Under the pieces are notes generated by a model. The model worked only from the letters and a program-made list of their open reading frames with translations, searched no databases and had not been told where the DNA came from. Of a stretch of DNA of 64,000 bases, positions 26,962 to 46,172 are shown piece after piece. The position numbers and the translations under genes are program-made. The stretch is from an uncultured Dehalococcoidales bacterium (GTDB lineage Bacteria; Chloroflexota; Dehalococcoidia; Dehalococcoidales; BS750m-G39): NCBI GenBank assembly GCA_964408935.1, contig CAYPBF010000001.1, forward strand, positions 100,283 to 164,282, written 5' to 3'. How positions within the stretch are numbered: position 1 is the first letter of the stretch; each line of letters begins with the position of its first letter.

Positions 26962-26971
26962 AGCTAAAGAC

Positions 26972-27486: not shown

Positions 27487-28287
27487 TTATTTTTTTAATA
27501 CTATTCCCACCGGATCGATTTCTTTACGTAATATCATTATGTGTTCTTCAGTAGGCTCTGAGCTAGTGTTAATCTCATCCGGTGTAATTATCATGAAGCC
27601 GCTATTCTCTTTCACTTCTTCCAGACTGATACCAGGGTGCAGTGATATCAGCACTAGCTTTTTTGTTTCATTATCAAATCCGTAGATGCCTAATTGGGTG
27701 ATAACGCGATACGGCCCTGACCCTCTTGGTAATCCAGCGTTCTCTCTGCTGCCAGGGCCATCCAGGTAACCAGGTGTCGTTAAAAAATCGACCTTTTCGA
27801 CAAACGTTCTCTTGGACTGGTTGGAAATTATGATTATGAGCCTCCGTGAGAATGAGCCAACGTCATTAGCACCACCGCTACCCGGCAGACGAATCTGTGG
27901 TAAATCATGATCACCGATAACTGTTGTATTTATATTCCCGTATACATCCATCTGAGCAGCGCCCAGAAAACCATAATCAACATAACCTGCCTGGGATAGA
28001 GACATAATGTCATGCATACTGGAGGCGGCTATACCTTGGTAATAGGTTCTAGATTCGCCGACAGAGATAGGGAGTTCGGGTAATATTGGCCCTATTCCAC
28101 CAGCCTCAAAAATAGCAAGCAGGTTAGGGGCGTTCGTTTTTTGAGCCAGCATGGTGGCTATTATTGGCAGCCCAGTGCCTACAAAAACCGATTTCCTATC
28201 CTCAAGCATAACAGCCCCGATAAAGGCCAGATATTCTCTTAAATTGTACTTACCCTCTTGTACCCCGGTTATTGGCACAGATAACAC
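27487..28287 (-). CDS. CoA-transferase subunit B (glutaconate/3-oxoacid CoA-transferase family I)
   Basis: 266 aa with the IFEAGGIG (catalytic Glu region) and LPGSGGANDV motifs. Confidence 0.75.
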   Translation of the reverse strand: MLSVPITGVQEGKYNLREYLAFIGAVMLEDRKSVFVGTGLPIIATMLAQKTNAPNLLAIFEAGGIGPILPELPISVGESRTYYQGIAASSMHDIMSLSQAGYVDYGFLGAAQMDVYGNINTTVIGDHDLPQIRLPGSGGANDVGSFSRRLIIIISNQSKRTFVEKVDFLTTPGYLDGPGSRENAGLPRGSGPYRVITQLGIYGFDNETKKLVLISLHPGISLEEVKENSGFMIITPDEINTSSEPTEEHIMILRKEIDPVGIVLKK

Positions 28288-28301
28288 CTCTTCTCTCTAA
28301 G

Positions 28302-29318
28302 CTATGGCTCTTTGTTTCTTGGAACTACCATCGGCTCCTCGAGTAACTCCCGCTTTATGAGATAAGTGATCCTCTCCTTACCCCCACAGAGTTCCAGGTA
28401 ATCTTGAAAATCATCAACGCTGTAGACATATTTATCTAGATACTCACTTACTCCTTCAGGAGTTTTAGACAAGCTTAGCCATTCCGTGATATGCTCTTCG
28501 TCATAGTAGTAGAGACCTGGCATCTGACAAGGGTGGGAACCATACGGAATCTTAACGACAGAATCCACTACAAAGAATGGTATCTTCGTTTTCCACGGCT
28601 CTCTTCTTATTAATTCGTTATCAACTATCTCTTCTGTCGTTAGTATTAACCTTCTGGCACATCTGGATAACTCTATGTCTTCCACTACGATACCGTCTAT
28701 TTGACCATTGCCATACACGTCACAACGGTGGACATGAATAAAGGCAACATCGGGATAGGCAGCTGGAATTAGGTTAACAGGTTTGCCACTGAAAGGGTCC
28801 CTAACTACCTTACACGAGCTGTATTTACCCGTGTCGGTACCGAGCAGATTACGGCTTGGTATAAAGGGTATACCCATCATGCCAGCTAACAATCGCCATT
28901 GATATCCAGCATTGCTAGTCTCGGCAGCTACACTGCAATGACCGCTTTCAACCATCCGCCTTGAAGCCGGAGATAGTCCCCTGAGCTCATGGCCGAAGGA
29001 ATAAGCCACCTCAACCTTATTTACACAGCCGGAAGCCACTAAAATGTCTAAATCATGGACGGCTGTTTTACCGGCCATAACGATGTTCCTCTTATTTTGT
29101 CGGATAATTTCATAAATAATAGCCATCGATACTCGTACGTGCCCAAATCCTCCACTGGCGATATAATCACCATCATGAATATACGTCGAAACCGCCTCTT
29201 TGACCGACATCATTTTATTTTTCAACTCGCGAGGCTTTTGGTTCAAAACCCATTCCCTTGCCTCATCAGGATCATGCCAGCCTATTAGCTCTCCCTTGCC
29301 TTCACTCAATACTTCCAT
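28302..29318 (-). CDS. CoA-transferase subunit A (GctA-like)
   Basis: 338 aa. It is paired with subunit B, and has GDYIASGGFG and a C-terminal extension as in glutaconate CoA-transferase alpha. Confidence 0.75.
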   Translation of the reverse strand: MEVLSEGKGELIGWHDPDEAREWVLNQKPRELKNKMMSVKEAVSTYIHDGDYIASGGFGHVRVSMAIIYEIIRQNKRNIVMAGKTAVHDLDILVASGCVNKVEVAYSFGHELRGLSPASRRMVESGHCSVAAETSNAGYQWRLLAGMMGIPFIPSRNLLGTDTGKYSSCKVVRDPFSGKPVNLIPAAYPDVAFIHVHRCDVYGNGQIDGIVVEDIELSRCARRLILTTEEIVDNELIRREPWKTKIPFFVVDSVVKIPYGSHPCQMPGLYYYDEEHITEWLSLSKTPEGVSEYLDKYVYSVDDFQDYLELCGGKERITYLIKRELLEEPMVVPRNKEP

Positions 29319-29351
29319 TTCTCTAGTTCCCTGTCTTTAATTAGTCGAATC

Positions 29352-30290
29352 CTAGAAGTTGACCTTGTCCTTCCCCTTAAGCTTGAGCATTTTCCTCACG
29401 TCATCCGGAGTGGCTATCTCTCTCCCCATCCCCCCGGCCATTCGGACTACTTTTTCCACCAGCTCGACGTTGCTCTTGGCCAGAACCCCTCTCTTCACGA
29501 AGATGTTGTCTTCCAGGCCAACCCTGACATGACCGCCCAGCATAATAGCCAGCGGCGCTGTGTTAATGTAACCCAGGCCGGCGCCTATGATTGACCATCG
29601 GTAATTCTCGTCGCCGAGCAACCTATCTGCTGTCTGCTTCATGATCATCACGTCCTCAGGCGCCGAACCAATTGAGCCGACAACACCGGTGACGAACTGC
29701 AGCCAGATGGGAGGCTTTATCATTCCCTGCCTGACATAGTGGTAGATATTGTAGATGTGACTAACATCGTAGCACTCACACTCATTCCTGGTATCGTTCT
29801 CCTGCATGGTCTTTAAAAATATTTCTAGAGAGACAAAAGTATTATGCTGGATAAAGCCCTCCAGCTTATGCAGGTAGTCCTTCTCCCAAGGGTACTGGTA
29901 GTCTTCGTCTTTGTATCTCTGGTAAACACCGCGGAGGCTTAAGCATATCGGCCCCATATTGAAAGAGGCAAGCTCGGGTTTGAAGGTGGGAACAACCTCT
30001 ATCCTTTCTTCTGGGGTCATGCCGACAGCGCCGCCCGTGGTCAGGCCGATGACCACATTGCTGTGCTGCTTTATTTTGGTGATAATCTCCCGGAACAGCG
30101 CCGGGTCTGAGGTGGGCCGGCCGTCTTTAGGGTCACGGGCGTGAATATGCACCACCGCCGCCCCGGCCTCAGCCGCTTTGACCGACTCATCGGCAATCTG
30201 GTCCGGGGTTATCGGTAAATAAGGGGTTTGAGTGGGCACGGTCAGACTGCCCGTAGGAGCGCAGGTTATTATCAATTTCTCCATTGTCAT
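29352..30290 (-). CDS. beta-keto acid cleavage enzyme (BKACE/DUF849; 3-keto-5-aminohexanoate cleavage enzyme family)
   Basis: 312 aa with LIITCAPTGS...TP.LPITPDQIA....A.EAGAAVVHIHARDP.DG.PT and a GHVRVGLEDN motif. Confidence 0.85.
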   Translation of the reverse strand: MTMEKLIITCAPTGSLTVPTQTPYLPITPDQIADESVKAAEAGAAVVHIHARDPKDGRPTSDPALFREIITKIKQHSNVVIGLTTGGAVGMTPEERIEVVPTFKPELASFNMGPICLSLRGVYQRYKDEDYQYPWEKDYLHKLEGFIQHNTFVSLEIFLKTMQENDTRNECECYDVSHIYNIYHYVRQGMIKPPIWLQFVTGVVGSIGSAPEDVMIMKQTADRLLGDENYRWSIIGAGLGYINTAPLAIMLGGHVRVGLEDNIFVKRGVLAKSNVELVEKVVRMAGGMGREIATPDDVRKMLKLKGKDKVNF

Positions 30291-30352
30291 CTCCCTAAAG
30301 CTTTATTTCTCCTTAGCGCATTTTCTACAAACTTCAGCTCTTCCCCCCGCGT

Positions 30353-31480
30353 CTAGCTTTCCACCCTGGTATTCCGTAGATTCAAGCCCTGCTCTTTCCA
30401 GAAGGCCAGCAACCGCTCGGCATCCAAGAAAGCCTCCGGGCAAAGTACGCCCTTCTCCTTGACCTCCACACGGTAAAGCATCTCGGCAGCAAAGGCGCAA
30501 TTGTGGCCGGTCATACCACTGGGCAGCCCGGTTATATGGTGGGTATAGGTGACGTCTCTGCTGCCTTCCTTACCCTTGATAATGAAATACCTGTTGGCTG
30601 TGGTGAAGCGTTTCTTCTCCTTCTTCAGGAGGGCTGAGTTGTTTAGCCCTTCGACGATAAAGTCCCTGGGTACTATTGAGCTAGTGCTCGGTTCTACTAG
30701 TCCAGAGTTGGCGAGGCCAAGCTCAATACATTTTATGAACCACTCATTAATCCAGGTGGGCAAATTACAGAGCTTGAAGACCACTGTCTTTACCCCTTTT
30801 ATGTACCGGGGCAGTGTCACCGGCTCCGGGTGGCCGAAATAGAAGGCCTGCTGTTTACCGATCGGCTCACCAAAGTCTATCTCCTCCCTGCCCCAATCAT
30901 TTGGTGTCTGCAGCCGGCCATCAATAAACTGGAGGTTGGAATCCATTAAACAATGGAAAATATGGTAGAGGACGGCACGGCCGAAGCCACCCCCCAGGCC
31001 GACACCCACCAGTATTTGGATTTCAGCCACTTCATCAAGCTTATCGGCACTATGCTTGATTAGGGCATTGCTGAATCCGGGGCTGTTGCCACACCCCAGG
31101 CAGATGGCTACCCCTGCCTTTTTGGCCGCATCATCAAGGGTGAATGCCTCTTGAATGACGTCGGCATCATCACAGATATCAACATAGTCAGTGCCGGCCG
31201 CTATAGCCGCCTTCATGGGGCTGATGCCGTATCTATAAAAGGGGCCGACACAGTTGATTACCAGATCCTTGCCCTTCATCAGCCCGACCATGGCTTTATA
31301 ATCAGTGACATCTATTTCTTCTGCCTTTAGCTTCTGGTCCTGGCATAAGGAGGCTTCCAACTTTTCCCTGTCTATCACCCTGTCAGCCAGTATGACTTGG
31401 CTGATCTCGGGCTTAGCGATCAAATCACCAGCAATGACGACACCGGACATGCCGAAACCACCGAGGATTAATATCTTCAC
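30353..31480 (-). CDS. saccharopine-dehydrogenase-like NAD(P)-binding oxidoreductase
   Basis: 375 aa with an N-terminal MKILILGGFGMSG Rossmann motif and the overall Sacchrp_dh pattern. The start overlaps the upstream VOC stop. Confidence 0.65.
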   Translation of the reverse strand: MKILILGGFGMSGVVIAGDLIAKPEISQVILADRVIDREKLEASLCQDQKLKAEEIDVTDYKAMVGLMKGKDLVINCVGPFYRYGISPMKAAIAAGTDYVDICDDADVIQEAFTLDDAAKKAGVAICLGCGNSPGFSNALIKHSADKLDEVAEIQILVGVGLGGGFGRAVLYHIFHCLMDSNLQFIDGRLQTPNDWGREEIDFGEPIGKQQAFYFGHPEPVTLPRYIKGVKTVVFKLCNLPTWINEWFIKCIELGLANSGLVEPSTSSIVPRDFIVEGLNNSALLKKEKKRFTTANRYFIIKGKEGSRDVTYTHHITGLPSGMTGHNCAFAAEMLYRVEVKEKGVLCPEAFLDAERLLAFWKEQGLNLRNTRVES

Positions 31481-31917
31481 TCTTTTCCTTCCTCTAAAAG
31501 CTCAATCAAGACCTTATTGCCCAGTAGAAAAAAGATAATTTTGGAGGGCTGAGTGCTTCCCGGTCTGAAGCTTCTGTCATAGCCCGCGCATTCCACCGGT
31601 GGAGACACCAACTTAAAGTCTCTCTCCACCAGCTCATCCACCACGCTATCAATATCGTCAACCTCGAAGCACAGGTGGTGCAGCCCACCCCCCTTTCTTT
31701 CCAGAAATTTTGTTACGGGAGAGTCATCGGAAAGGGGTTCCAACAACTCAATGTATGTCTCCTCCCCTTCATTCGAAGCGATAAAGCTGGCCCTGACCTT
31801 TTGGATGGGGTCCGACTCAGGCTGCGTCGCCTGCTTAAGACCCAGGCTACGAAATACCTCGACCAGCTCTGAAAGGTGCGGGACAACCAATCCAATATGG
31901 TGCAACCTAAGCTTCAT
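31477..31917 (-). CDS. VOC/glyoxalase-fold protein, methylmalonyl-CoA-epimerase-like
   Basis: 146 aa with HHIGLVV...YIELLEP...GGGLHHLCFEVDDI, the metal-ligand pattern of MCE-type epimerases. Confidence 0.65.
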   Translation of the reverse strand: MKLRLHHIGLVVPHLSELVEVFRSLGLKQATQPESDPIQKVRASFIASNEGEETYIELLEPLSDDSPVTKFLERKGGGLHHLCFEVDDIDSVVDELVERDFKLVSPPVECAGYDRSFRPGSTQPSKIIFFLLGNKVLIELLEEGKE

Positions 31918-32402
31918 GTGTTCACCCAGGACCTCCAGACTACCTCAAAGATAATCCCCCCCACCCTTCGGGTGTCGAAATAGCAGGCCTTCAAATCTCC
32001 CTTATTGGCTTCTACATACATTTCCGCTCTGGTTAGGGGGGCAAAACCGGCTTTTACGAATCTGTTGAAAGTCTCTTCATAATCGGAGACCGGAAAGCCG
32101 ATATGCTGCAAACCCTCGCCCCGAGTTTCCAAGAACTCCTTATGCAGCGACTCTCCCTCAAGCGGCTGGATTAACTCCAACACGATATCGCCCCACACGG
32201 CCTTGCCCTGCTTTAGCCTGAAAGAAGAAGGCCTCTCTCTAAACCATTGCTTTTCGGGCTTGAATTCGTACACGTCAAAGGGCCCCAGCCCGAATACGGA
32301 TGAATAGTAGTCCATTGCCTTTTCCAGATCCCTAACCACTACACCTATATGTTCTATAGGAGGCAGGGAAAACTTTTCTCTAAGCGCTTTGGTATCGTTC
32401 AC
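31914..32402 (-). CDS. VOC/glyoxalase-fold protein
   Basis: 162 aa with IEHIGVVVRDLEKA...LELIQP...GLQHIGF. Confidence 0.6.
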   Translation of the reverse strand: MNDTKALREKFSLPPIEHIGVVVRDLEKAMDYYSSVFGLGPFDVYEFKPEKQWFRERPSSFRLKQGKAVWGDIVLELIQPLEGESLHKEFLETRGEGLQHIGFPVSDYEETFNRFVKAGFAPLTRAEMYVEANKGDLKACYFDTRRVGGIIFEVVWRSWVNT

Positions 32403-32419
32403 TTCTTCTTTCTCTTTCC

Positions 32420-33733
32420 CTATAGCCTTTTTATAGTACGGTCAACGCAATCCAGCACCTTATCCACATCCGCCTTGGTAACGGCGCTGCAGACGTACCA
32501 CCGGCCACCCCACATAATTAGCACCCCCTCCTCAGCCAATAGGACACGGAGTTTGTTCTGCTTTTCTACATCCGCCTCCTTCAAATCTCTGGCGCTGTAG
32601 GCGGCTTCCCTGTCTATGAACTGGAAGTAGAATACTCCCCTTGGTCCTTGGATGAGTGTTGGTATGCCGTGCCTCCGACTGATCTCCTGCAGACCATTCA
32701 TCAGCGGCTTTTGGAGCTCGTCGATTTTCCGATAGTAGGCACTATTATCTTTTTCGAGGATGGTCAGACTGGCCAGAGAGGCAGCGATACCGAAGGGGTA
32801 CCCGTTAAAAGTCCCCGCCCCGATAACCCTCCTCTCGAGAAGCATGTCCATGATTTCCTTCTTTCCGGCAACGGCCCCCATGGCCACACCGCCGGCCAAG
32901 GCTTTACCGAAGGTGGTGATATCGGGCGTTACATCGAACAACCCCTGGGCGCAATTAAGCGCTACCCTGAAACCGGTAATAACCTCGTCAAAACAGAGCA
33001 TAATGCCGTACTTGGTGCATAATTCCCTGACCTTCTCCAGGTAGCCGGGCCGGGGTGAGCAACAACCGCTATTGCAAAGTATAGGCTCCATGATAACTAG
33101 GGCCACCTCTTCTCCATATCTCTCCAAGACCCTTTCTAGGGTTTCTATGTCGTTCCAGGGCAACTTGAAAGATTGCTTGAAGGCTTTGGGATACCTGCCT
33201 TCGGTGCCCAAAGGGTCGGCCTCGCTTTCCACGGCAAAGGGCATGCCGGTGGAATTGTCATTGACCACTCCGCCTAGGACATTATCCAGCCATCCGTGGT
33301 AATGCCCTTCAAAACGGATAAAATAGCGCCGTTTGGTATAGGCGCGGGCAAGCCTAATAGCCAGCTGGACTGCCTCGGTTCCCGAGAGGCAGAAGCGTAC
33401 CTTCTCGGCGCAGGGGACATATTTTACAAACTTCTCCGCCAGCTCCACTTCCATCGGGGTCTGGGCGGCCCCGGAGACTAGGTAGTAAAGAGTGTCCAGT
33501 TGCTGCTTCAAAGCTTTGATGTATTCCCTGTTGCTATAGCCGAAAATGCCTGGGCCAGCTCCGCACATGAAATCAATATATTCATTGCCGTCGACGTCCC
33601 AGAGATGGGCTCCTTCGCCTCTGATAATGAAATTGGGTTTGGCGCTTAACGGACTCCTGAGGTTGCTCTGTGGCCCGGGCATAACCTTTAATGCTCGTTC
33701 CTGCCACTTCATATTTTCCGCATTATTTAGCAT
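32420..33733 (-). CDS. class-III (omega/beta) aminotransferase, GSA-aminomutase-like
   Basis: 437 aa with CLSGTEAV, FDEVITGFR and TFGKALAGG (PLP-lysine) motifs. Confidence 0.85.
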   Translation of the reverse strand: MLNNAENMKWQERALKVMPGPQSNLRSPLSAKPNFIIRGEGAHLWDVDGNEYIDFMCGAGPGIFGYSNREYIKALKQQLDTLYYLVSGAAQTPMEVELAEKFVKYVPCAEKVRFCLSGTEAVQLAIRLARAYTKRRYFIRFEGHYHGWLDNVLGGVVNDNSTGMPFAVESEADPLGTEGRYPKAFKQSFKLPWNDIETLERVLERYGEEVALVIMEPILCNSGCCSPRPGYLEKVRELCTKYGIMLCFDEVITGFRVALNCAQGLFDVTPDITTFGKALAGGVAMGAVAGKKEIMDMLLERRVIGAGTFNGYPFGIAASLASLTILEKDNSAYYRKIDELQKPLMNGLQEISRRHGIPTLIQGPRGVFYFQFIDREAAYSARDLKEADVEKQNKLRVLLAEEGVLIMWGGRWYVCSAVTKADVDKVLDCVDRTIKRL

Positions 33734-33790
33734 ATTGGGCGCCTTTTGCTTTATTCAGCTAACCTTTAAATCCCACCAGCACTTACTGTT

Positions 33791-34804
33791 TTATCCGAGC
33801 TGCATCTTCCTGAGGTTATCGGGGTAAAGCGCTTTGAGAATTCTGAGCATTTTAGCATCCCTGTCCCCGACCGCTTCTTCGTGTGTACTGTCCTTGGTAT
33901 AGCTATAATAGCCCCTGCCCTCAATACTAATCCTGTAATCTACCATCATCTCTTTTATCACCTGTCGAACCCTGCCCGGTCCCCATTCCTTTTCAAACAC
34001 TTCTGTGCTAGCCAGACGCTGCTCTTCGCTTTGATTACTGACTTGATCGGCATAAGCCATCATAAACCGCTCAAAAAGTCCCTGCACCGGTAGACGGAAA
34101 CCAAAAGTAGTGCGCATCACCGTGTCGATATCTTCGGCGTTGGAAACGCCTTCTTCACAGAGCGATGCGGCTTCATTGAGAACGGCAAACATTAGCCGCC
34201 CACCAATGATGGCATCTTTTTCCTTGCCAATCTTAATAGGGATCTTACCTATTTGTTCTAAAAAGGCACAGGTTCGCGCTACAGTCTCCTCCGAAGTCTC
34301 CAGACTGGGCACTACTTCCACTCCAGGCACGATGCAGGGCGGGTTGAACCAGTGTGCCACAATAATAGCATCCTTCCGTTCGCATAATACTCCAACCTGA
34401 GAAGCTGGTAGAGGGCCACTGTTGCCCGCCAGTATAGTGCCCTTTTGGCTCATAGACTCCATATCTTTATAGAGCTTCTGTTTCAGCGGCAGGTTATCTG
34501 TGATGGCCTCAAAAACAATCTGAACATCGCTCGCAGCAATCGCCAAGTCTGTGGTGGTCCTGATTCGGGCTAACACCTCTCGTTTTGTCTGTTCTGTGGC
34601 TAAGCCTTCACTGATGAAAGTATCCATATGGGAAGCGTTGAGCGATGTTGCCTTCTCCAAGACGGCTTCCCCTATGTCCTGAAGGATAACGTCATAGCCA
34701 CCGAGAGCGCATGCCAAGGCAATGCCCCGTCCCATACTTCCCCCACCAACTACCGCTACCTTCTTTACCTCTTTTAGCCAGACTTCAGCATCATTGACCG
34801 CCAT
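33791..34804 (-). CDS. 3-hydroxyacyl-CoA dehydrogenase family oxidoreductase (also the fold of L-carnitine dehydrogenase)
   Basis: 337 aa with VAVVGGGSMGRGIA (NAD-binding), the NSGPL and HWFNPP motifs, and a 3HCDH C-domain. Confidence 0.8.
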   Translation of the reverse strand: MAVNDAEVWLKEVKKVAVVGGGSMGRGIALACALGGYDVILQDIGEAVLEKATSLNASHMDTFISEGLATEQTKREVLARIRTTTDLAIAASDVQIVFEAITDNLPLKQKLYKDMESMSQKGTILAGNSGPLPASQVGVLCERKDAIIVAHWFNPPCIVPGVEVVPSLETSEETVARTCAFLEQIGKIPIKIGKEKDAIIGGRLMFAVLNEAASLCEEGVSNAEDIDTVMRTTFGFRLPVQGLFERFMMAYADQVSNQSEEQRLASTEVFEKEWGPGRVRQVIKEMMVDYRISIEGRGYYSYTKDSTHEEAVGDRDAKMLRILKALYPDNLRKMQLG

Positions 34805-34918
34805 ATTAATCTCCTTGAAGAGAATTTATGGGTTTAGTTAGTAGCATATCCTTTTGTACCCTCTCCTTCTGAATAAAGAGGAGGTGATTAAAGGAGTAAG
34901 ACCCTAAACCGCCCACTT

Positions 34919-36136: not shown

Positions 36137-36250
36137 TTAATAATCTATATTCAGTTGATAGTGACGCCCTTTTACCAGATGGTATGGTCTGGAGATATCG
36201 CCTTCACATCAAGTAGTAATTCCCTCCTCCTGCGTTCACCAAAGCCACTA

Positions 36251-38547: not shown

Positions 38548-38932
38548 TTTTTAGTTACCTATTACCTATCCTTTGACTAGTGTTACTGCCGCCATAGCGT
38601 CCTTGCTCCAATTGAAAAACGCTGTCGGTACGAACACACCTAAGGCAATAGCAACATCTCAAGACAGTTTAGCAGAAATGTACAGTATTGTCAATATACC
38701 TCTTGACAAGAGGAAATTGGTGTGCTATTTTACTGTTTATAGTACTATTATTGTACCAATATGTTTAATCTAGTGGAATATAGTCATATACTTAGCTGCC
38801 GTATTGTGTGTTACGTCACGGTCATCAGGTCAAGATTGCATTTACCAAAGGTGCAAAGGGGAGGGATGAACATGAACGAATTTTAGGAAAGATGGTTAAA
38901 TAAACATCAACAAATTTCAGTAAGGAGGAAAG

Positions 38933-40123
38933 ATGAAAACGAGAACGTTTACCATAGTGTTTGCGATTTTGAGTATAATAGTAATCATGTCCACTTTTAG
39001 CATGCTGGGTTGCGGTGGTGAGCCCGAAGCCGTTGTTGAAGAATGGAACATCCCCTTACTAGTCCCTGTAACCGGTTATGCGGCACCATTTGGCCTTGAT
39101 GCCGAATGGGGAGCTGAAAGGGCAATGGAGGAGATAAATAATGCTGGCGGCATCAGGGGATTGCCGCTTAAGTTGACCTTGTATGATTCAGCCTTCGATC
39201 CCTCCAAAACAGTCCAAGTTATGGCCCAAGCACTTGAGGATAACCCATTAGTAATCCTCGGGCCAATGGGTGCCATCGAGACGCAATCGTGCCAAGACCT
39301 GGTCATTGGCCAGGGCATTCCTATATTCACCGACCTCTCCTTTCCGGCAATGCGCGATGAATTTTCACCTTGGGGCTTCTCTCTTTACGCAGATTGGGAC
39401 GCGGCAAATACCCTGGCTATAAGGGAATGGCTCAGGCTTAATCCAGACATCCAATCTGTGGTCTTAGTCCTTGTTGCAGGAGAAACATCCCATCTCCAAA
39501 GCATTGCCGTCGCAGAGAGAGAACTTGCAGCCCTGGGTATAGAAGTGAAAGGCAGGGTCGAGGTTTCTTGGGGTGGTCTAGACGCAGGAGCCGCGGCAGT
39601 AAAGGCTTTGGACCTAAACGCTGACGGATACTACAGTGCTCTTAACCAAGTTGAACAAGCTATGTTTATTAAAGCTCTGTACGAGCGAGGTATGACTGAA
39701 GGAAGGCGGATAGTCTCTGGTGGTGCCTGTATCTCAGTGACATTCTTTGAGATAGGTGCAGGATACTCAGAGGATACATATGTTTGGAATTCCTACGATA
39801 TGGATTACCAGGGTGATATTTGGCAGACTTATGTTGAAGCCTATAAGGCTGACCATGACGGTGGATTGCCATACTCCATAGCTATTGGCGATTACTATGA
39901 GGCTGTCTATGCCATAAAAACGGCCATTGAAAATCTAGGGATAACCGGTGACCCGGACAAGCTTGCCGAGGAAAGATTGGCGATAAAAGACTATCTCCGA
40001 GATTCAGATGGTATTCCTGGTCTCCAGGGTGAGTGGGGCTATACGGATGGCCTAAAAGATTCCCCACTATACATGTTCCAAATAAAGGACAACGAAGCGG
40101 AGTTGATTAGCCAGTTTCGCTAA
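38933..40123 (+). CDS. ABC transporter substrate-binding lipoprotein (LivK/type-1 PBP family)
   Basis: 396 aa behind AAGGAGG, with a signal peptide and lipobox (MLGCGG). The INNAGGIRGLPLKL motif is typical of branched-chain amino acid/amide binders. Confidence 0.8.
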   Translation: MKTRTFTIVFAILSIIVIMSTFSMLGCGGEPEAVVEEWNIPLLVPVTGYAAPFGLDAEWGAERAMEEINNAGGIRGLPLKLTLYDSAFDPSKTVQVMAQALEDNPLVILGPMGAIETQSCQDLVIGQGIPIFTDLSFPAMRDEFSPWGFSLYADWDAANTLAIREWLRLNPDIQSVVLVLVAGETSHLQSIAVAERELAALGIEVKGRVEVSWGGLDAGAAAVKALDLNADGYYSALNQVEQAMFIKALYERGMTEGRRIVSGGACISVTFFEIGAGYSEDTYVWNSYDMDYQGDIWQTYVEAYKADHDGGLPYSIAIGDYYEAVYAIKTAIENLGITGDPDKLAEERLAIKDYLRDSDGIPGLQGEWGYTDGLKDSPLYMFQIKDNEAELISQFR

Positions 40124-40224
40124 AGAACCAGAAGTTGGGATTGAAAGAATGCTATGTGAGGGGCACTGGCACTAAACACTCTCTCGTCAGTGCCAGTGCC
40201 CCGGTTAGAGGGAGGGAATTCAAC

Positions 40225-40866
40225 ATGTTTGACCTTAAGAAGATAGCCGAGAGTGTGATTGCCATGGACGTTGGCAAGACTGAGGAACTGACTAAGGCTG
40301 CCATAAAGGCCAAGATACCCGCTGAGGAAATATTGAAAAAAGGGCTCATTGCTGGCATGGAGGTGGTGGGTAGACAGTTTCGGGATGGCGAACTCTTCAT
40401 GCCAGAGGTACTAATGTCCGGGGAAGCCATGAAAGCAGCTATGAAATCGCTTAAACCGTTACTGACCAAGGAGGGTACTGTTAAAAGCTTTGTTGGCAAG
40501 GCGGCGATAGGCACTGTTGAGGGTGACATTCATGACATCGGCAAGAACCTTGTCATTATGATGCTTGAGGGGAATGGGTGGGAAGTCATTGATCTTGGCA
40601 TAGACATCTCTCCCGAAGAATTCTGTCAGGCAGTGAGGGAGAACGACTTTCAGGTTCTGGGCCTATCGGCTCTGCTCACGTCAACGATGGATAGCCAGGT
40701 AAAAACCATAGAAGCATTAGAAGCCGCTGGATTAAGAGACAAGGTCAAGATAGCCATTGGCGGCGCCCCTGTAAACCAGGCCTTCGCTGACCAGATTGGC
40801 GCTGATGCTTATGCCGCCAATGCCGGAGAGGCAGCCGCCAAGTTCAATAAACTGATAGGCAAGTGA
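40225..40866 (+). CDS. corrinoid (cobalamin-binding) methyl-carrier protein, MtaC/MtbC type
   Basis: 213 aa from an ATG behind GAGGGAGGGA. It has an N-terminal B12-binding_2 cap helix bundle and the GDIHDIGKN (DxHxxG) motif, plus SALLT and GGAP motifs. Confidence 0.85.
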   Translation: MFDLKKIAESVIAMDVGKTEELTKAAIKAKIPAEEILKKGLIAGMEVVGRQFRDGELFMPEVLMSGEAMKAAMKSLKPLLTKEGTVKSFVGKAAIGTVEGDIHDIGKNLVIMMLEGNGWEVIDLGIDISPEEFCQAVRENDFQVLGLSALLTSTMDSQVKTIEALEAAGLRDKVKIAIGGAPVNQAFADQIGADAYAANAGEAAAKFNKLIGK

Positions 40867-40917
40867 TATGGTTAGCTAATAAGTACGAGAAAGCTATCGT
40901 TACTTTGGAGGCAGAAA

Positions 40918-41958
40918 ATGAGCGAAATGACTGGTACCGAGCGTATGTTGAAGGCGATGAGACTTCAGGAGCCAGATAGGGTTCCCCATTTCGAGCTCTA
41001 TCTTGACCCTTCGGTGGGGCAGGCGATACTCCCGGGAAGTTCATTCTTTGACTGGGTTGAATACTTCGATTGGGATGGAATGCTGGCATGGATTGGTGAG
41101 TTGTCCAAGCCTGTGGACGAGTCAGGGAAACGTTTGCTGTCGGAATGGGGCTACATTGAGAGGGCGGCAGGAACGCAGCGCCCCCTTCCCACTGATCCGC
41201 CAGTGAAGTCGGAGAAAGACCTTAAGACCTGGAAACCACCCGACCCGGACAATCCGAATAGATACGGGGCTGTAAAGGAGGAGGTAAGAAGGTATAAGGG
41301 ACAGAGAGCCATTATTGGCATTAGCCTCGACCCTTTCGAGATGGCTAGCTATGTGCGTGGCACCGCCGACTTTTACATGGACCTCGTTCGTAATCCGGAT
41401 TTCGCAGACCGCTTGACCGGCATAATCCGCGACCACTACATCAAAGAGATGAGGAATGCCGTTGAGCTTGGGGCGGACATATGGTATTTCGGTGCACTCT
41501 ATGTCGCCAAGGAAGGGCCCTTGATTTCCCGGGAACTCATTGCCAAGCATGTCATGCCTTTTTTGAAATCCCTGGTTGATGAAGCCCATCGCTTGGGTGT
41601 CCCTGTTATATACCACCTTGACGGAAACATCCTGCCGATAATTGACCTTATTCTAGATACTGGCATTAATGCTTTGCACCCGATTGACCGGTTAGCTGGG
41701 CTGGACCTTGGTGAGATGAAAAAGAACTATGGAGACCGTGTCTGCCTAATGGGAAACATAGATTGCGGTTCAACCCTTGTACATGGCACGGTGGACGAGG
41801 TGCGAGACGAGGTAAAGAGATGCATCCGGCAGGCAGCAGTAGGTGGAGGCTATATTTGTAAGTCCAGCAACACCATTCAGTACGGAACCAAGCCGGAAAA
41901 CTATGAAGCCATGGTCAAAGCTATCCACGAGTATGGCAAATACCCAATATCGCTCTAG
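40918..41958 (+). CDS. URO-D-fold methylcobamide methyltransferase (MtaA/CmuA-like)
   Basis: 346 aa with ERMLKAMRLQEPDRVP at the N-terminus. It has YHLDGN where MtaA has the H-x-C zinc ligand region. Confidence 0.75.
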   Translation: MSEMTGTERMLKAMRLQEPDRVPHFELYLDPSVGQAILPGSSFFDWVEYFDWDGMLAWIGELSKPVDESGKRLLSEWGYIERAAGTQRPLPTDPPVKSEKDLKTWKPPDPDNPNRYGAVKEEVRRYKGQRAIIGISLDPFEMASYVRGTADFYMDLVRNPDFADRLTGIIRDHYIKEMRNAVELGADIWYFGALYVAKEGPLISRELIAKHVMPFLKSLVDEAHRLGVPVIYHLDGNILPIIDLILDTGINALHPIDRLAGLDLGEMKKNYGDRVCLMGNIDCGSTLVHGTVDEVRDEVKRCIRQAAVGGGYICKSSNTIQYGTKPENYEAMVKAIHEYGKYPISL

Positions 41959-42019
41959 ACGCTAGACAGCAGCAGGTACGATGCGAATCATAATCGATCT
42001 TTTACAAGGAGGTTATTAG

Positions 42020-42847
42020 ATGGCGGGAAAGCACGGGAGCGCTGAGAATCACCAATTAACGGTGGCACTTACATTTGATTTTGATGCCGAATCTGTCTTT
42101 ACCGGTATGTTTGGTGCTGGTGGGTTGGAATCGCGAGGAGTATACGGTGCACGGGAGGGTATGCCAAGGATTCTAAAGTTGCTAAGTAAGTACGAATTAC
42201 CGGTAACATTTTTCGTCCCGGGCTATACTGCCGACCACTACCCGGATATTGTACGTTCTATTGCGGCCGATGGACATGAAATAGCCCATCACACTTATTC
42301 ACATACGCCGGCACCAGCTCTGAAGCCTGAGGAAGAAAAGGCTGAGATAGTGAGAGGACTAGAAGCTTTGGAACGGGTAGTAGGCATAAAGCCACGCGGT
42401 TACCGCGCAGCAGCTATGGGACTTTTTGACGTGACAATTGAACTCCTGCTTGAGTATGGTTTTGAATATGATGCTAGTGAGATGGGAGCCGACCGCCCTT
42501 ACTGGCTGGAATATAAAGGGAAACGCACCGATATTGTTGAATTGCCTTCATCTCCTCAACTTGCCGATACCACTCATTTCCTCTTCATGTTTCCCCCAAA
42601 CTATATGACGGGATTGGCCGCGCCGTCTAAAGTCGAGGAGATATGGCATGAGGATTTCAAAGGGGCTTATGAAGAGGGGGGTGATATCTACTTCATGCTG
42701 ATAATGCATCCTTTCGTCATAGGTCACCTCCACCGGATGAGGATGCTGGAGAGATTTATTGGCTACATGTTAGAGCACGATGGTGTCTGGTTTGCCCGGA
42801 TGGGTGAGGTGGCTGATGATTTCCGGAAACGGCAGAACTTGGGCTGA
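42020..42847 (+). CDS. polysaccharide-deacetylase (NodB/CE4) family hydrolase
   Basis: 275 aa with LTFDFD, PVTFFVPG and GHEIAHHTYSH motifs. Confidence 0.75.
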   Translation: MAGKHGSAENHQLTVALTFDFDAESVFTGMFGAGGLESRGVYGAREGMPRILKLLSKYELPVTFFVPGYTADHYPDIVRSIAADGHEIAHHTYSHTPAPALKPEEEKAEIVRGLEALERVVGIKPRGYRAAAMGLFDVTIELLLEYGFEYDASEMGADRPYWLEYKGKRTDIVELPSSPQLADTTHFLFMFPPNYMTGLAAPSKVEEIWHEDFKGAYEEGGDIYFMLIMHPFVIGHLHRMRMLERFIGYMLEHDGVWFARMGEVADDFRKRQNLG

Positions 42848-42912
42848 TTTCCTAGACGTAGGATTGTTAGGGTATAAAAAATTACAGGAAACTGCTATAG
42901 CAATCTAAGGCC

Positions 42913-43677
42913 ATGAGCATACTTTCAACTTCAGGATTGAGTAAGCATTTTGCTGGCATTCATGCTCTCGATAAATTAGATATTACTATCGAAGAAGGTC
43001 AGATCCATGGTCTTATTGGCCCGAATGGTTCTGGAAAAACGACGTTCTTTAATGTAGTTACCGGCGTGCTGCCGGCTACAGAGGGAAAGATTTACTTCGA
43101 TTCCGCAGATATCACTAACTTTAGTCCTCAAGTTATCACCAAGATGGGTATCGGACGCACTTTCCAGAGAGCAATACTTATGCCGATGATGAGCTGCTTA
43201 GAGAATGTAATGGCGGGAATGTACTGCCGCACTAAAACAAACATACTGGGGACATTCTTCCGTTTACCTTTTACTCACTCGGCACAAGAAACCGAAATGA
43301 AAAAGCGAGCGATGGAGCTTTTGCAGTTTGTCGGTCTGGCAGATTCTACTGAGCGCTGGAGCAGCGAGCTAGTTTGGATAGAGAGCCAGCTCCTGCAAAT
43401 AGCCCGCGCCCTAGCTGTCGAGCCAAAGCTCCTGTTACTTGATGAGCCCACGGCGGGGATGGGACCTGATGAAACTGAAAGAGTCGACAGATTAATCAAG
43501 CAAATACGGGACGACATGGGGATAACGGTTATTTTGGTGGCCCATGACGTTAAGCTAGTCATGGGAATCTCAGATTGGGTCACGGTTCTAAGCTTTGGTA
43601 AAAAGATCGCTGAAGGAACACCGATACAGGTGCAAAACGACCCTGCGGTTTTGGAGGCTTACCTTGGCCAAGAATAG
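42913..43677 (+). CDS. livG: ABC transporter ATP-binding protein (LivG type)
   Basis: 254 aa with GPNGSGKTT, a Q-loop and LLLDEPTAGM. Confidence 0.85.
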   Translation: MSILSTSGLSKHFAGIHALDKLDITIEEGQIHGLIGPNGSGKTTFFNVVTGVLPATEGKIYFDSADITNFSPQVITKMGIGRTFQRAILMPMMSCLENVMAGMYCRTKTNILGTFFRLPFTHSAQETEMKKRAMELLQFVGLADSTERWSSELVWIESQLLQIARALAVEPKLLLLDEPTAGMGPDETERVDRLIKQIRDDMGITVILVAHDVKLVMGISDWVTVLSFGKKIAEGTPIQVQNDPAVLEAYLGQE

Positions 43678-44398
43678 GGAAAGTATCCTCAAGGTTGAGA
43701 ACCTTTCCGTATCCTATGGGCGTATTAGTGCAATTAGGCAGGTTAGTTTGGAAGTTAATAAGGGGGAGTGCGTAGCCCTTCTTGGAGCAAACGGCGCTGG
43801 AAAATCGACTTTAATGGCAGCGGTGCTCGGCGTGAGTCGAGCTATAAGCGGTACTATTCGTTTTATAGGGCACGATATCACACATAAATCTACTGACAAC
43901 GTCGTGGCTTCTGGCATATCTGTGGTTCCCGAAGGTCGTGGTATTCTGCCATTAATGTCGGTGATGGAAAATTTACAGTTGGGGGCTTACCATCTCAAAG
44001 GTGATAGCAATGAACTCTTAAATCGAATGTTTGATCGATTCCCCATTTTATCTAAGCGGAGGGAGCAACCAGCAGGAACTCTAAGCGGTGGAGAGCAACA
44101 GATGTTGTCTATAGCCCGGGCGTTGATGGGAGCCCCTAAGCTGCTACTAATGGACGAACCATCTCTAGGACTAGCTCCAATACTGGTAAGTAAGCTCTTC
44201 GATACAGTAGTAGAGTTAAAGAACGAAGGGTATACCATAATTTTAGCTGAACAGAACGCCCGAAAGGCACTAAAGTGCGCTGATAGAGCCTACGTTCTTG
44301 AAGTCGGTCGTGTTGTGCTTGAAGGCACTGCTCAAGAGCTAACTAATAATCCGAAAGTGCGTCAGGCTTATTTAGGCGGCACTGATAAACTTTGTTGA
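43664..44398 (+). CDS. livF: ABC transporter ATP-binding protein (LivF type)
   Basis: 244 aa from a TTG behind GGAGG. The longer track ORF would overlap livG by 83 nt. Motifs are GANGAGKST, LSGGEQQML and LLMDEPS. Confidence 0.8.
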   Translation: MAKNRESILKVENLSVSYGRISAIRQVSLEVNKGECVALLGANGAGKSTLMAAVLGVSRAISGTIRFIGHDITHKSTDNVVASGISVVPEGRGILPLMSVMENLQLGAYHLKGDSNELLNRMFDRFPILSKRREQPAGTLSGGEQQMLSIARALMGAPKLLLMDEPSLGLAPILVSKLFDTVVELKNEGYTIILAEQNARKALKCADRAYVLEVGRVVLEGTAQELTNNPKVRQAYLGGTDKLC

Positions 44399-44411
44399 GA
44401 GAGAAGCTCTT

Positions 44412-45287
44412 ATGGAAGTCTTTGTTGCCCAGTTAATTAACGGTCTGGCAATGGGTAGCATTTATGCCTTGGTCGTTGTAGGTGTTAACCTAATACTTTT
44501 GGTCAGGGGGGTCGTGCATTTCTCCTACGCCCACATTATGGTGATCTCTATGTACGTATCCTGGATGGTATTAGGACAAACGAATAATAATCTAGCTTTA
44601 GCAATCTTCTCAGGTATTATCGCTGCTACTTTGCTAACCACTGCCACCGAGTTTGTTTTCCGACCTCTAGCTGTGCGAGAAGCCCTTCTGGAAACAATTA
44701 TAGTAGCCATGGGTATAGGCATAATACTTACTGAAATAATGTCTCACTTCCTCCACCGCGGCTTGCCTATTAGCTTTCCGGCGAGCATAACAGGGGGAGG
44801 AGCTGTGGTGCAACTTGGTATGATTACTTTCTCACTGGCACACGTATATTCATTGCTTGGTAGTATTGGTGTTGTGATCGGGCTTTTCTTTTTACTGTAC
44901 CGCCATAAACAGGGTAGAGCTTTTAGGGCTATAGCCCAAAACCTTGGCGTAGCACGCCTTCTGGGCATTCCTGTTAATAAGACAGGCATTTACAGCTTCG
45001 CCATAGCCGGCGTATTGGCAGGCATCATCGGTGTGTTCATGGCTATGACTCTCGGTATGGCCTCATCTTCTCTCGGTGATACTCTTGCAATCAAAGCGCT
45101 GGTACTGATGTTATTCGCTGGTATGGGTAATTTGAAGGGGGGGCTGATCTGTGCCTTACTTTTGGGTTTGGCGGAGGCATTGACGATGGCTTATCTGCCA
45201 GGACGATGGACCGAGGCTATAGTCTTTGGGGCGATAATGATAGTAATAATACTGAGGCCAAAAGGGTTATTCGGTACCCAGGCGTAA
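44412..45287 (+). CDS. livH: ABC transporter permease (LivH type)
   Basis: 291 aa and polytopic, starting QLINGLAMGSIYALV like the family. Confidence 0.85.
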   Translation: MEVFVAQLINGLAMGSIYALVVVGVNLILLVRGVVHFSYAHIMVISMYVSWMVLGQTNNNLALAIFSGIIAATLLTTATEFVFRPLAVREALLETIIVAMGIGIILTEIMSHFLHRGLPISFPASITGGGAVVQLGMITFSLAHVYSLLGSIGVVIGLFFLLYRHKQGRAFRAIAQNLGVARLLGIPVNKTGIYSFAIAGVLAGIIGVFMAMTLGMASSSLGDTLAIKALVLMLFAGMGNLKGGLICALLLGLAEALTMAYLPGRWTEAIVFGAIMIVIILRPKGLFGTQA

Positions 45288-45320
45288 CCCTTGGTAAAAC
45301 GCTAAAGGAGCTCAGCAGCG

Positions 45321-46172
45321 ATGTCGTTGTCAGCAGTATATTACCTTCAGTTTACAGCCGTTTTTATTCTACTAACCTGGGCTTTCTACATACCCTTTCG
45401 TGGTGGGCAATTATATAATGGACCTATCTATTGTATGGCTATTGGCGGCTACTTTTCTGCCTTTTTGGCTCGGGATCTGGGTTGGCCCTTCGGGCTGGCA
45501 CTTATTTGTGCAGTAGTGGTAGGGACAATCTTCGGCTTCCTACCAGCTCTCGGATTCGCTCGAACTACTGGCATAGCCACAGCTATAGCTTCTATAGCCC
45601 TGATCTTCGTAATCCAATCAATTATTACGAATGCAGAGTTCTTGGGCGGCTCGCGGGGTTTTTGGGATATTCCGAAAGTGGATTACCTGTTGCCGATAAC
45701 CTATGGAATTGTCTTGATTGTCGGCATTATTATCTACCGGCTTGACCACTCTCGCCTCGGGAGAGCTATCGAAGCAATTCGCGTCGACCCTAGTCTGGGT
45801 GCTACCATGGGTGTTAACGTGACGCGGCTTAGCATGTTTACCCTGACACTTTCGTCAGCAATAGGTTCTCTGTCTGGGGTCATTTATGCGTTCACCTTGG
45901 GTACCATCCATCCTAGTAGTTTTGGCTTTTCTCTGCTACTTTATTCGTGGACTATGCTGTTTATTGGTGGTCGTTATACTATGTGGGGGGCGTTAGTTGC
46001 CGCCCCAATTCTGTGGGGTCTACCCCAATGGGTTCCTCAAGCCATCGCTGAATACACCAACATTCTTTATGGAGCATTACTCATCATCATCCTCCTCCTT
46101 CGACCTCAGGGTATCATTGATAGACGTACAATACAACGCATAAGGGGCGTGGCTAGGATTTGGCGTAGATGA
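45321..46172 (+). CDS. livM: ABC transporter permease (LivM type)
   Basis: 283 aa and polytopic. It follows livH as in liv operons. Confidence 0.8.
   Translation: MSLSAVYYLQFTAVFILLTWAFYIPFRGGQLYNGPIYCMAIGGYFSAFLARDLGWPFGLALICAVVVGTIFGFLPALGFARTTGIATAIASIALIFVIQSIITNAEFLGGSRGFWDIPKVDYLLPITYGIVLIVGIIIYRLDHSRLGRAIEAIRVDPSLGATMGVNVTRLSMFTLTLSSAIGSLSGVIYAFTLGTIHPSSFGFSLLLYSWTMLFIGGRYTMWGALVAAPILWGLPQWVPQAIAEYTNILYGALLIIILLLRPQGIIDRRTIQRIRGVARIWRR

Follow-up and report, generated by a model that had tools for sequence, protein, structure and literature searches.

A tRNA-Pro island from Dehalococcoidales that sets a corrinoid methyl-transfer pair beside a beta-keto-acid-cleaving gene block

The methyltransferase CdmB, a substrate-side member of the UroD superfamily, has MtoB, MtvB, OdmB and VdmB among its relatives (PMC13222342), and the lower pathway of anaerobic phloroglucinol degradation, for which a cluster has been reported in the genus Archaeoglobus, includes a beta-keto-acid-cleaving enzyme (BKACE) (PMC10470551). 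Here we describe a locus that carries both URO-D-superfamily and BKACE proteins: an island of about 19.5 kb (positions 26962-46451) within a 64,000-nucleotide stretch of DNA from an uncultured Dehalococcoidales bacterium (GenBank assembly GCA_964408935.1, contig CAYPBF010000001.1, positions 100,283 to 164,282), the whole of which we call the window. The island lies next to a tRNA-Pro(GGG) gene and is bounded by perfect 48-bp direct repeats; it was horizontally acquired and inserted at tRNA-Pro. Dehalococcoidia are abundant in the anoxic subsurface and mostly uncultured, and their carbon sources are poorly known. On balance, and with the scales standing about level, we read the island as encoding one substrate-specific pathway built from exchangeable modules, in which demethylation is joined to BKACE cleavage. 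Each part belongs to a known family, while for the combination of an H-x-D-G-N URO-D/corrinoid pair with hydrolases and an aminotransferase-VOC-BKACE block the literature open to search gave no description: we found no paper joining BKACE/DUF849 with Dehalococcoidia, and BKACE together with corrinoid gave only one unrelated paper. An earlier reading of this DNA by a model, made from the letters alone (the sequence-only reading), had likewise known of no characterised pathway of this composition.

An island with one divergent core

The integration target is a tRNA-Pro gene with anticodon GGG (26882-26956, plus strand; ARAGORN, and Rfam tRNA with 66.2 bits). The left, attL-like repeat (26914-26961, plus) comprises 43 nt of the 3' end of this gene and 5 nt more, and is matched perfectly by an attR-like partial tRNA-Pro at the far end (46404-46451, plus); no equivalent arose in 100 shuffles, and the same partial tRNA-Pro fragment terminates the island in a second locus (L098). 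The GC content of the island is 48.1%, compared with 54.9% and 55.3% in its two flanks. The locus thus combines a tRNA border and a far-end repeat with deviant GC and a content and location that vary between copies, as is characteristic of tRNA-integrated islands. The sequence-only reading had used the word 'island' without giving evidence, which the tRNA-Pro gene and the 48-bp repeats now supply.

All 19 open reading frames (ORFs) that had been listed for the island were recovered at the same coordinates in the ORF table, and Pfam confirmed their families: URO-D (two proteins), B12-binding and B12-binding_2, BKACE, CoA_trans (two), 3HCDH_N/3HCDH, Aminotran_3, Peptidase_M20 with M20_dimer, Glyoxalase_4 (two), Sacchrp_dh_NADP/_C, a tandem HTH_AsnC with AsnC_trans_reg, Polysacc_deac_1, Peripla_BP_6, ABC_tran (two) and BPD_transp_2 (two). 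The 385-bp control region and the HLDGN motif claimed for the island were borne out as well, the latter by alignment, and the 'several' overlaps of 4 nt exist, their number being two (VOC1/VOC2 and VOC2/SacDH).

Four variants of the island, those of the window, of L001 (a Dehalococcoidales metagenome-assembled genome and the closest genome among the matches listed), of L098 and of L094/95, keep one divergent core. Its first arm encodes an Lrp-type regulator, an M20 amidohydrolase, a 3-hydroxyacyl-CoA-dehydrogenase-family enzyme (HADH), an aminotransferase, two VOC proteins, a saccharopine-dehydrogenase-like oxidoreductase (SacDH-like) and BKACE; its second arm encodes a binding protein, a corrinoid protein, a 346-aa URO-D protein, a NodB-type hydrolase and LivGFHM. 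Around this core the variants differ. The window copy, with tRNA-Pro on its left and the partial tRNA-Pro on its right, has a gene for a second, 417-aa URO-D protein and a CoA-transferase pair, and lacks a pterin-type methyltransferase. L001, about 90% identical in nucleotide sequence over 29348-46288 and set between different flanks, shares the 417-aa URO-D gene and lacks both the CoA-transferase pair and, in its 21-kb locus, a pterin-type methyltransferase. L098, whose proteins are 72-99% identical and which ends at the partial tRNA-Pro, has the CoA-transferase pair without the 417-aa URO-D gene, and no pterin-type methyltransferase was found there up to the contig end, about 1.2 kb past livM. 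L094/95 has neither accessory and carries, 3' of livM, a pterin-type methyl-corrinoid:tetrahydrofolate (THF) methyltransferase (NF005719, 278.7 bits against a cut-off of 259). The 417-aa URO-D gene and the CoA-transferase pair, each present in two of the four variants, are therefore accessory, and the set as a whole shows cassette exchange, with the second methyltransferase, the CoA-transferase pair and the THF methyltransferase gained or lost around a fixed core. The core itself is a mosaic: measured as protein identity to L094/95, the front end, made up of the importer, the two hydrolases, the corrinoid protein with its 346-aa enzyme and HADH, stands at 77-90% and the aminotransferase at 77%, while the VOC proteins, the SacDH-like enzyme and BKACE stand at 58-64%. 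The two arms do, then, occur together in other genomes, if narrowly, in three further variants of which the most divergent genes are 58-64% identical.

That the same divergent core recurs in all four variants indicates that the two arms are stably linked. Their coupling is further argued by the single transporter and single regulator of the whole island, which lie on opposite arms, by the M20 and HADH genes, which co-vary with the transporter arm (77-90% identity to L094) and not with the BKACE block (58-64%), and by a closely related transporter elsewhere (locus L097) that serves an MttB-type corrinoid demethylation. A different view would have two independent modules, one harvesting methyl groups, for example from a methoxylated aromatic acid, by means of the importer, the corrinoid protein and one or two URO-D methyltransferases, and the other catabolizing amino acids through the aminotransferase, the VOC pair, the dehydrogenase and BKACE, the two having nothing in common but a mobile element and an intergenic region. 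This view, which we hold to be somewhat unlikely, draws on the occurrence of the back end, the aminotransferase-to-BKACE block, with TRAP or other Liv-type transporters and without corrinoid genes, on the pair formed by the corrinoid protein and the 350-aa URO-D enzyme, which stands alone in unrelated contexts, on the LivK-family members that bind aromatic acids, whose match to the modelled binding protein is as good as that of amino-acid binders, and on the Liv-type ABC genes that are common beside homologues of the 417-aa O-demethylase-type enzyme. It sits poorly with a divergent arrangement that is kept in four of four variants despite recombination and gene gain and loss, with a catabolic arm that has no transporter of its own and a transporter arm that has no regulator, with the embedding of the NodB hydrolase between the methyltransferase and the ABC genes, and with the tracking of the plus arm by M20 and HADH.

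The two arms diverge from a control region of 385 bp (38548-38932; 37.4% GC). An inverted repeat, TTGTCAA-N8-TTGACAA, at 38688-38709 amounts to two opposed -35-like boxes (TTGACA) and is also found in L098. Neither promoter-like sites (34, against 25.8 +/- 5.2 in shuffles) nor terminator-like sites (8, against a shuffled expectation of 18.3) are in excess, so that the operon structure rests on gene spacing only, and an Rfam scan returned the tRNA as its only match, with no cobalamin or other riboswitch. The sole regulator of the island is a tandem Lrp/AsnC protein of 320 aa (36251-37213, minus), with two HTH_AsnC stretches and AsnC_trans_reg; together with the shared divergent promoter region it would co-regulate both arms.

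The corrinoid protein and the two URO-D methyltransferases

The corrinoid protein (40135-40866, plus) matches Pfam B12-binding_2 and B12-binding with 73.9 and 91.9 bits and presents the DxHxxG motif as DIHDIG at residue 131 when counted along the listed ORF. Translation probably begins in fact at the ATG at 40225, for a protein of 213 aa like its orthologues. It is followed by the 346-aa URO-D-superfamily methyltransferase (40918-41958, plus; Pfam URO-D 135.3 bits). Homologues of the latter adjoin a corrinoid protein of 212 or 213 aa, with no other methyltransferase, in all three unrelated contexts examined, and the window's corrinoid protein is 52-66% identical to those so paired with 350-aa URO-D homologues. 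The identities of corrinoid protein and methyltransferase drop in parallel (66/55, 56/48 and 52/46%), which together with the adjacency marks the two as a cognate pair. Around the 346-aa enzyme lies a clade of proteins of about 350 aa from Dehalococcoidia and Deltaproteobacteria, and the enzyme itself is about equally distant from MtaA, UroD and CdmB (36, 33 and 31 bits). Its HLDGN aligns with the LHICGN of MtaA (4ay7), and H-x-D-G-N is invariant across 116 homologues; conservation of H233, D235, C283 and C314 in the clade is compatible with a metal site.

Two other identities were rejected. As HemE, the 346-aa protein scores 36.2 bits against the TIGR01464 cut-off of 302.95 and the 417-aa protein gives no match, so that neither URO-D protein is a HemE orthologue, in keeping with the methyltransferase label of the sequence-only reading. 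As an MtaA-type enzyme of coenzyme M methylation, the 346-aa protein scores 97.6 against 235.4 (mtaA_cmuA, TIGR01463), and an invariant H-x-D replaces the H-x-C zinc site.

In one of the loci with a 350-aa URO-D/corrinoid pair (L088, 6075-14776), the pair is followed by a 236-aa protein weakly matching the MetH reactivation domain (PF02965, 24.8 bits), then by a CocE/NonD-type hydrolase and an EutA/arylmalonate-decarboxylase-like protein, with two enoyl-CoA hydratases, an MFS transporter and an AsnC regulator in the flanks. The 350-aa clade may have in this 236-aa protein a partner for corrinoid reactivation.

The 417-aa URO-D-superfamily methyltransferase (gene at 37294-38547) belongs to a cassette of 1.4 kb (1,424 bp; 37246-38669, minus), mapped as an indel against L098 and L094 and lying with the start of Lrp on one side and the shared promoter region on the other. 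The cassette is present in the window and in L001 and absent from L098 and L094/95; it is 98% identical in nucleotide sequence to that of L001 whereas the neighbouring DNA is about 87% identical, which suggests its recent acquisition or exchange. The only strong solved relative of the encoded protein is CdmB (8.9e-44 in the PDB), and an exact sequence look-up found no record of it. We surveyed its homologues in 79 genome loci, taken from the best 80 of 202 matching stretches; those listed span Dehalococcoidia, Desulfobacterales, Promethearchaeota, Hadarchaeota and Moorellales. Of the 78 other loci listed, 51 have a corrinoid protein in the neighbourhood (phmmer gives 58 of all 79), 18-24 a pterin-binding methyltransferase and 12 a RACo, and Liv-type or TRAP transporters are frequent. 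By sequence, the protein appears to be a CdmB/O-demethylase-type substrate-side methyltransferase and a later addition to the island. A role on the acceptor side was considered for it and set aside, since elsewhere members of its family are accompanied by a corrinoid protein, a pterin-type methyltransferase and a RACo of their own. In one Chloroflexi contig (L071, 9824-19947) eight tandem ORFs, two of them short fragments, match the 417-aa methyltransferase, suggesting that substrate-side enzymes have greatly multiplied around a single corrinoid system.

These observations change how the methyl-transfer genes are to be grouped. The two URO-D methyltransferases and one corrinoid protein had been taken for a functional unit on the model of three-component demethylases, a view that does not survive the absence of the 417-aa cassette from L098 and L094/95: the second methyltransferase that the window lacks is a pterin-type enzyme, as present in L094, and not the second URO-D protein. 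The statement that the window holds no MttB homologue, pterin-binding methyltransferase or RACo-type activase was confirmed across its 64 kb by tblastn, which for RACo used proteins from related loci as queries, and by Pfam analysis of the flanking ORFs.

Genes proposed for import, unmasking and beta-keto-acid cleavage

The plus arm opens with a LivK-family binding protein of 396 aa (38933-40123, plus; Pfam Peripla_BP_6 128.3 bits), the only binding protein of the island, whose N-terminus (...SMLGC) is a lipobox-like signal. Its AF2 model has a pLDDT of 91.8, and a metagenome scan with the protein gave a single weak match, a fragment of 39%. The arm ends in livG (42913-43677), livF (43595-44398), livH (44412-45287) and livM (45321-46172), all on the plus strand and identified by Pfam and NCBIfam as ABC ATPases and permeases; their products are 75-82%, and the binding protein 49%, identical to those of the MttB-type locus L097. 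That locus (707-14908) encodes, in order, an opine-type dehydrogenase, a corrinoid protein, a non-pyrrolysine MttB-family methyltransferase, an Asp/Glu-racemase-like protein, caprolactamase-like HyuA/HyuB, an M19 dipeptidase, the binding protein and LivGFHM.

Two hydrolases accompany the importer. The NodB/CE4-fold protein of 275 aa (42020-42847, plus; Pfam Polysacc_deac_1 82.7 bits) belongs to the PuuE/HpPgdA-like branch and matches 3rxz (3.9e-48), 3qbu (1.4e-39) and PuuE (4.1e-24) in the PDB. The M20 amidohydrolase of 405 aa (34919-36136, minus; TIGR01891, 185.8 bits against a cut-off of 153.75) belongs to the N-acyl-amino-acid/dipeptide hydrolase subfamily, with HmrA (6.7e-54) and Xaa-Arg dipeptidase (1.7e-46) as its PDB matches.

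The BKACE protein (312 aa; 29352-30290, minus; Pfam PF05853 330.6 bits) matches its family over the full length, positions 1-274 of 274 of the model. The best of the four BKACE models that it matches is that of triacetate/3,5-dioxohexanoate acetoacetate-lyase (NF053538), with a near miss of 406.2 against 430, and it scores well below its other matched models (Kce, 3-oxoadipate), in a comparison set that does not contain the dehydrocarnitine-cleaving enzyme. In the PDB it matches 3lot (2.8e-108) and 8rio (2.6e-87). By sequence it is thus placed in the neutral-substrate group, like the enzymes that act on triacetate and beta-ketohexanoate (PMC11961710, PMC10470551). Another locus (L080, 428-17406) is a BKACE-rich context, with a BKACE 70% identical to that of the window, two BKACE paralogues, two acetoacetate-decarboxylase-family proteins, two amidohydrolases and one succinyl-CoA-ligase-like protein.

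Upstream of BKACE lie the SacDH-like oxidoreductase (375 aa; 30353-31480, minus; Pfam, with a weak PDB match to 4ina, 8.9e-10), which is kept in all four island variants and replaced by a GDH-like enzyme in modules outside the island, and the two VOC proteins, VOC1 (162 aa; 31914-32402, minus; Pfam Glyoxalase_4) and the methylmalonyl-CoA-epimerase-like VOC2 (146 aa; 31477-31917, minus; TIGR03081 86.9 against 114.95; PDB 3rmu, 1.8e-14). Alignment shows the H..E..H..E motif intact in both; with these motifs and the close linkage of the pair to the aminotransferase gene, either glyoxalase-type isomerization or methylmalonyl-CoA-epimerase-type proton transfer would fit. The second VOC gene of L094 (3698-3964) is called at 88 aa, compared with 146 aa in the window, and could reflect a truncation or frameshift in that lineage. 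The class-III aminotransferase (437 aa; 32420-33733, minus; Pfam 212.3 bits) scores 341 against 398 for NF000818 and 312 against 525 for GntE, and its PDB matches are likewise HemL/GntE-like, so that the label of beta-aminotransferase once given to it is not one that can be demonstrated. Enzymes of the HemL/GntE type act on carbonyls adjacent to an amino group.

The HADH-family enzyme (337 aa; 33791-34804, minus; Pfam 3HCDH_N 166.8 bits) falls below the cut-off of every NCBIfam equivalog, and in a related module (L082) a short-chain dehydrogenase/reductase (SDR) occupies its position. With carnitine dehydrogenase models it scores 124 against 592 (NF005716) and 80.6 against 414 (NF005471), and a carnitine route was rejected. 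The sequence-only reading had proposed import, deacylation, demethylation and beta-keto-acid cleavage as one unit acting on carnitine-like or beta-amino-acid osmolytes; the general logic of that proposal holds, and its analogy with carnitine is weakened both by these scores and by a BKACE that fits best the 3,5-dioxohexanoate model.

The last two genes of this arm encode the CoA-transferase pair, subunit B-like (266 aa; 27487-28287, minus; Pfam CoA_trans 87.7 bits) and subunit A-like (338 aa; 28302-29318, minus; Pfam CoA_trans 122.7 bits). The B-like protein has orthologues of 92% identity in L087 and 90% in L098, its gene is absent in L001 and L094, and L001 lacks 2,025 bp matching 27323-29347 of the window, where the CoA-transferase genes lie. 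The pair is far below the cut-offs of the 3-oxoacid CoA-transferase models (pcaI_scoA, TIGR02429, 25.9 against 128.5; pcaJ_scoB, TIGR02428, 31.4 against 243.55) and is accessory, so that a handling of acetoacetate by these proteins, as first proposed, is not demonstrated. Beyond them lies the non-coding left end of the island (26962-27486; blastn and sequence), in which a stretch of 179 bp (27144-27322) is 95.5% identical to L001 19254-19432, above most coding DNA of the island; in L001, where the CoA-transferase genes are missing, it stands directly 3' of the BKACE gene. This stretch could be a conserved island-end or regulatory element.

Blocks with the order aminotransferase-VOC-VOC-(GDH-like)-BKACE(-CoA-transferase A-B) occur without corrinoid genes in L082/83, L085 and L087, where they carry a BKACE 76-93% identical to that of the window and a TRAP or other Liv-type transporter. 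The back end is therefore generic and exchangeable, and the BKACE/CoA-transferase end of the window is indeed 92-93% identical to L087, compared with 59% to its sister island L094. The GDH-like partner hints at an aminotransferase that works in the direction of catabolism, with recycling of 2-oxoglutarate.

The composition of this arm calls to mind two described routes. In the first, a methoxylated polyphenol would be degraded by a variant of the anaerobic phloroglucinol pathway, with O-demethylation by URO-D enzymes, ring reduction and opening by non-orthologous enzymes (the SacDH-like protein as reductase, the VOC pair as ring hydrolase), HADH as 3-hydroxy-5-oxohexanoate dehydrogenase, BKACE as triacetate acetoacetate-lyase and the CoA-transferase activating acetoacetate. 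We regard this as improbable. The best model of BKACE is indeed that of the 3,5-dioxohexanoate enzyme, its best PDB match, the uncharacterised 3lot, which we take to be an Archaeoglobus fulgidus protein, scores above BKACE15, and the 417-aa enzyme falls in the O-demethylase/CdmB branch. The characterised cluster likewise combines a dehydrogenase of the 3HCDH family with a BKACE and a CoA-transferase (PMC10470551). Against this, Pfam found among the 19 island proteins neither a phloroglucinol reductase (SDR; adh_short) nor a cyclase-family dihydrophloroglucinol cyclohydrolase, the 417-aa O-demethylase-type gene is missing from two variants, M20 and NodB would have no role, and the aminotransferase, invariably in the block and with a GDH-like partner in sister modules, points to an amine substrate.

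An amine substrate is what the second route offers, a variant of lysine or beta-lysine fermentation in which 3,5-diaminohexanoate or 5-amino-3-oxohexanoate would be deaminated by a dehydrogenase and the aminotransferase and then cleaved by BKACE into acetoacetate and either acetoacetyl-CoA or 3-aminobutyryl-CoA, the corrinoid genes serving an N-methylated or N-acetylated lysine derivative. Two deaminating enzymes are present in three of the four module types compared (aminotransferase with SacDH-like, with GDH-like or with a second class-III aminotransferase), BKACE with a two-subunit CoA-transferase resembles kce with atoAD of the established pathway, and M20 and NodB could deacetylate N-acetyl-beta-lysine. 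We nevertheless think this route very improbable, given a Kce equivalog score of 262.5 against a cut-off of 382, an aminotransferase of the HemL/GntE type, a VOC pair that has no counterpart in lysine fermentation, and the absence by Pfam of lysine 2,3- and 5,6-aminomutase, Kdd and Kal from the island.

Outside the island the ORFs are housekeeping genes by Pfam, with SurA-like, hom, thrC, folE, pyr and car genes on one side and DUF169, an RNase J-like protein, SOD and two-component genes on the other. The pyrimidine operon at 13281-20329 (plus; pyrR-like, pyrB, pyrC, carA ... carB, pyrK-like) is split between carA and carB by an archaeal-type PEP carboxylase gene (14366-15826; PF14010, 650 bits), followed by two ORFs with no Pfam match (15851-16558 and 16518-17054), in a stretch of low GC (about 48%). 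A full-length heliorhodopsin gene (54319-55086, plus; PF18761, 317 bits) has a DJ-1/PfpI gene on one side and, on the other, an unassigned ORF and then a ferritin-like gene.

A proposed pathway and its closest relatives

On the reading that we favour, of one pathway in exchangeable modules, the binding protein and LivGFHM would import an amino-acid-like compound from which the NodB-fold hydrolase and the M20 amidohydrolase would strip an acyl, amide or lactam mask. The methyl group of the substrate would pass to the Co(I) corrinoid protein by way of the 346-aa URO-D enzyme, and a pterin-type methyltransferase, which L094 encodes on its island and which in this genome presumably lies elsewhere, would hand it on to tetrahydrofolate; the 417-aa URO-D cassette behind the minus-strand promoter most likely adds a second methyl-substrate specificity by way of the same corrinoid protein. 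The HADH-family enzyme would then oxidize a beta-hydroxyl group and the HemL-like aminotransferase take off the amino group, with the SacDH-like dehydrogenase regenerating the amino acceptor or removing a second or secondary amine and the VOC pair epimerizing or isomerizing an intermediate. Finally BKACE and acetyl-CoA would split the neutral beta-keto acid into acetoacetate and an acyl-CoA, and the optional CoA-transferase pair may handle the acid product. While the gene families, the borders, the conservation of modules and the cassette are observed directly, we infer in which order the steps run, what the SacDH-like and VOC proteins do, which acceptor takes the methyl group and what the substrate is. 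For the last we favour a methylated amino or hydroxy acid of C5-C6 with an acyl or lactam mask; as the sequence-only reading had also concluded, the sequence does not reveal which compound is degraded. We considered acetylcarnitine, N-acetyl-beta-lysine, anserine-type dipeptides, hydroxylated lactams and mycosporine-like amino acids as candidates, and none explains every gene.

Several points weigh against the island acting as one pathway. We know of no characterised URO-D-family enzyme whose methyl donor is an aliphatic amino-acid derivative. The two arms are found jointly in four closely related variants only, probably of one lineage, so that common descent on a mobile element could also account for their linkage, and each module also occurs alone elsewhere. 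With no methyl acceptor enzyme or corrinoid activase in the window, a complete methyl-transfer cycle cannot be read there. By Foldseek against the PDB, the model of the binding protein matches leucine, aromatic-acid and urea binders equally, at 14-22% identity, and the scheme gives the VOC pair no defined reaction. No integrase or recombinase is present among the ORFs of the window copy of the island (ORF table and Pfam), although a large serine recombinase stands beside the BKACE end in L094. Among the characterised URO-D-family enzymes named in one account, none demethylates an aliphatic amino-acid derivative (PMC13222342).

A bolder proposal, which we offer tentatively and consider rather unlikely, is that the 350-aa H-x-D-G-N URO-D clade and its corrinoid protein form a new class of substrate methyltransferase for a non-aromatic, amino-acid-derived compound, perhaps a methylated beta- or omega-amino-hydroxy acid with an acyl or lactam mask that serves as an osmolyte or comes from necromass, and feed an undescribed anaerobic route of aminotransferase, VOC isomerase and BKACE on a tRNA-Pro island spreading among Dehalococcoidia. 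URO-D-type corrinoid methyltransferases would then possibly gain a new substrate class, and the widespread aminotransferase-VOC-VOC-BKACE module a physiological role. As a compact transferable unit of 17-19 genes with one importer and one regulator, the island is testable by heterologous expression.

Among known systems, the non-pyrrolysine quaternary-amine demethylation loci of the MttB superfamily are exemplified by L097, which shares with the island a closely related transporter coupled to a corrinoid protein and hydrolases, and has an opine-type dehydrogenase; the methyltransferase of L097 has the MttB and not the URO-D fold, and L097 has no BKACE block. The MtaA and MtbA enzymes of methanogens have in common with the 346-aa enzyme the URO-D fold and the His of H-x-C; the 346-aa enzyme presents an Asp in place of the Cys, with scores of 97.6 against 235.4 and 57.9 against 400, and to our knowledge coenzyme M is not known in Dehalococcoidales. 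Lysine fermentation (Kce, 3-aminobutyryl-CoA aminotransferase, AtoAD) and carnitine catabolism follow the same logic, in which a beta-keto acid is made, split by a BKACE and handled by a CoA-transferase, whereas the island scores far below the Kce, carnitine dehydrogenase and 3-oxoacid-CoA-transferase cut-offs and lacks the aminomutases, Kdd and Kal. The lower phloroglucinol pathway (TfD, the BKACE TAL, and CoA-transferase; PMC10470551) uses the same set of three families, to which the island adds the aminotransferase, the VOC pair, the SacDH-like enzyme, M20, NodB and the corrinoid genes. BKACE15 of Paracoccus denitrificans (PDB 8RIO/8RIP/9HNF; PMC11961710) is of the same BKACE branch (2.6e-87), in a context said to be aromatic degradation as against the aminotransferase-VOC block of the island, the physiological role of BKACE15 being itself unknown. 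Finally, the corrinoid-dependent systems of three or four components known from anaerobes, the O-demethylases MtvABC, OdmABCD and MtoABCD and the chloromethane system CdmBCA (PMC13222342), share with the island a substrate methyltransferase of the UroD superfamily and a small DxHxxG corrinoid protein, and the sister island L094 has in addition their pterin-binding methyl-corrinoid:THF methyltransferase. The window copy differs from these systems in having neither a pterin-type methyltransferase nor a RACo in the locus, and the conserved methyltransferase of the island constitutes a separate, 350-aa clade that is wired not to aromatic-ring metabolism but to an importer of the amino-acid type, a pair of hydrolases and a BKACE pathway.

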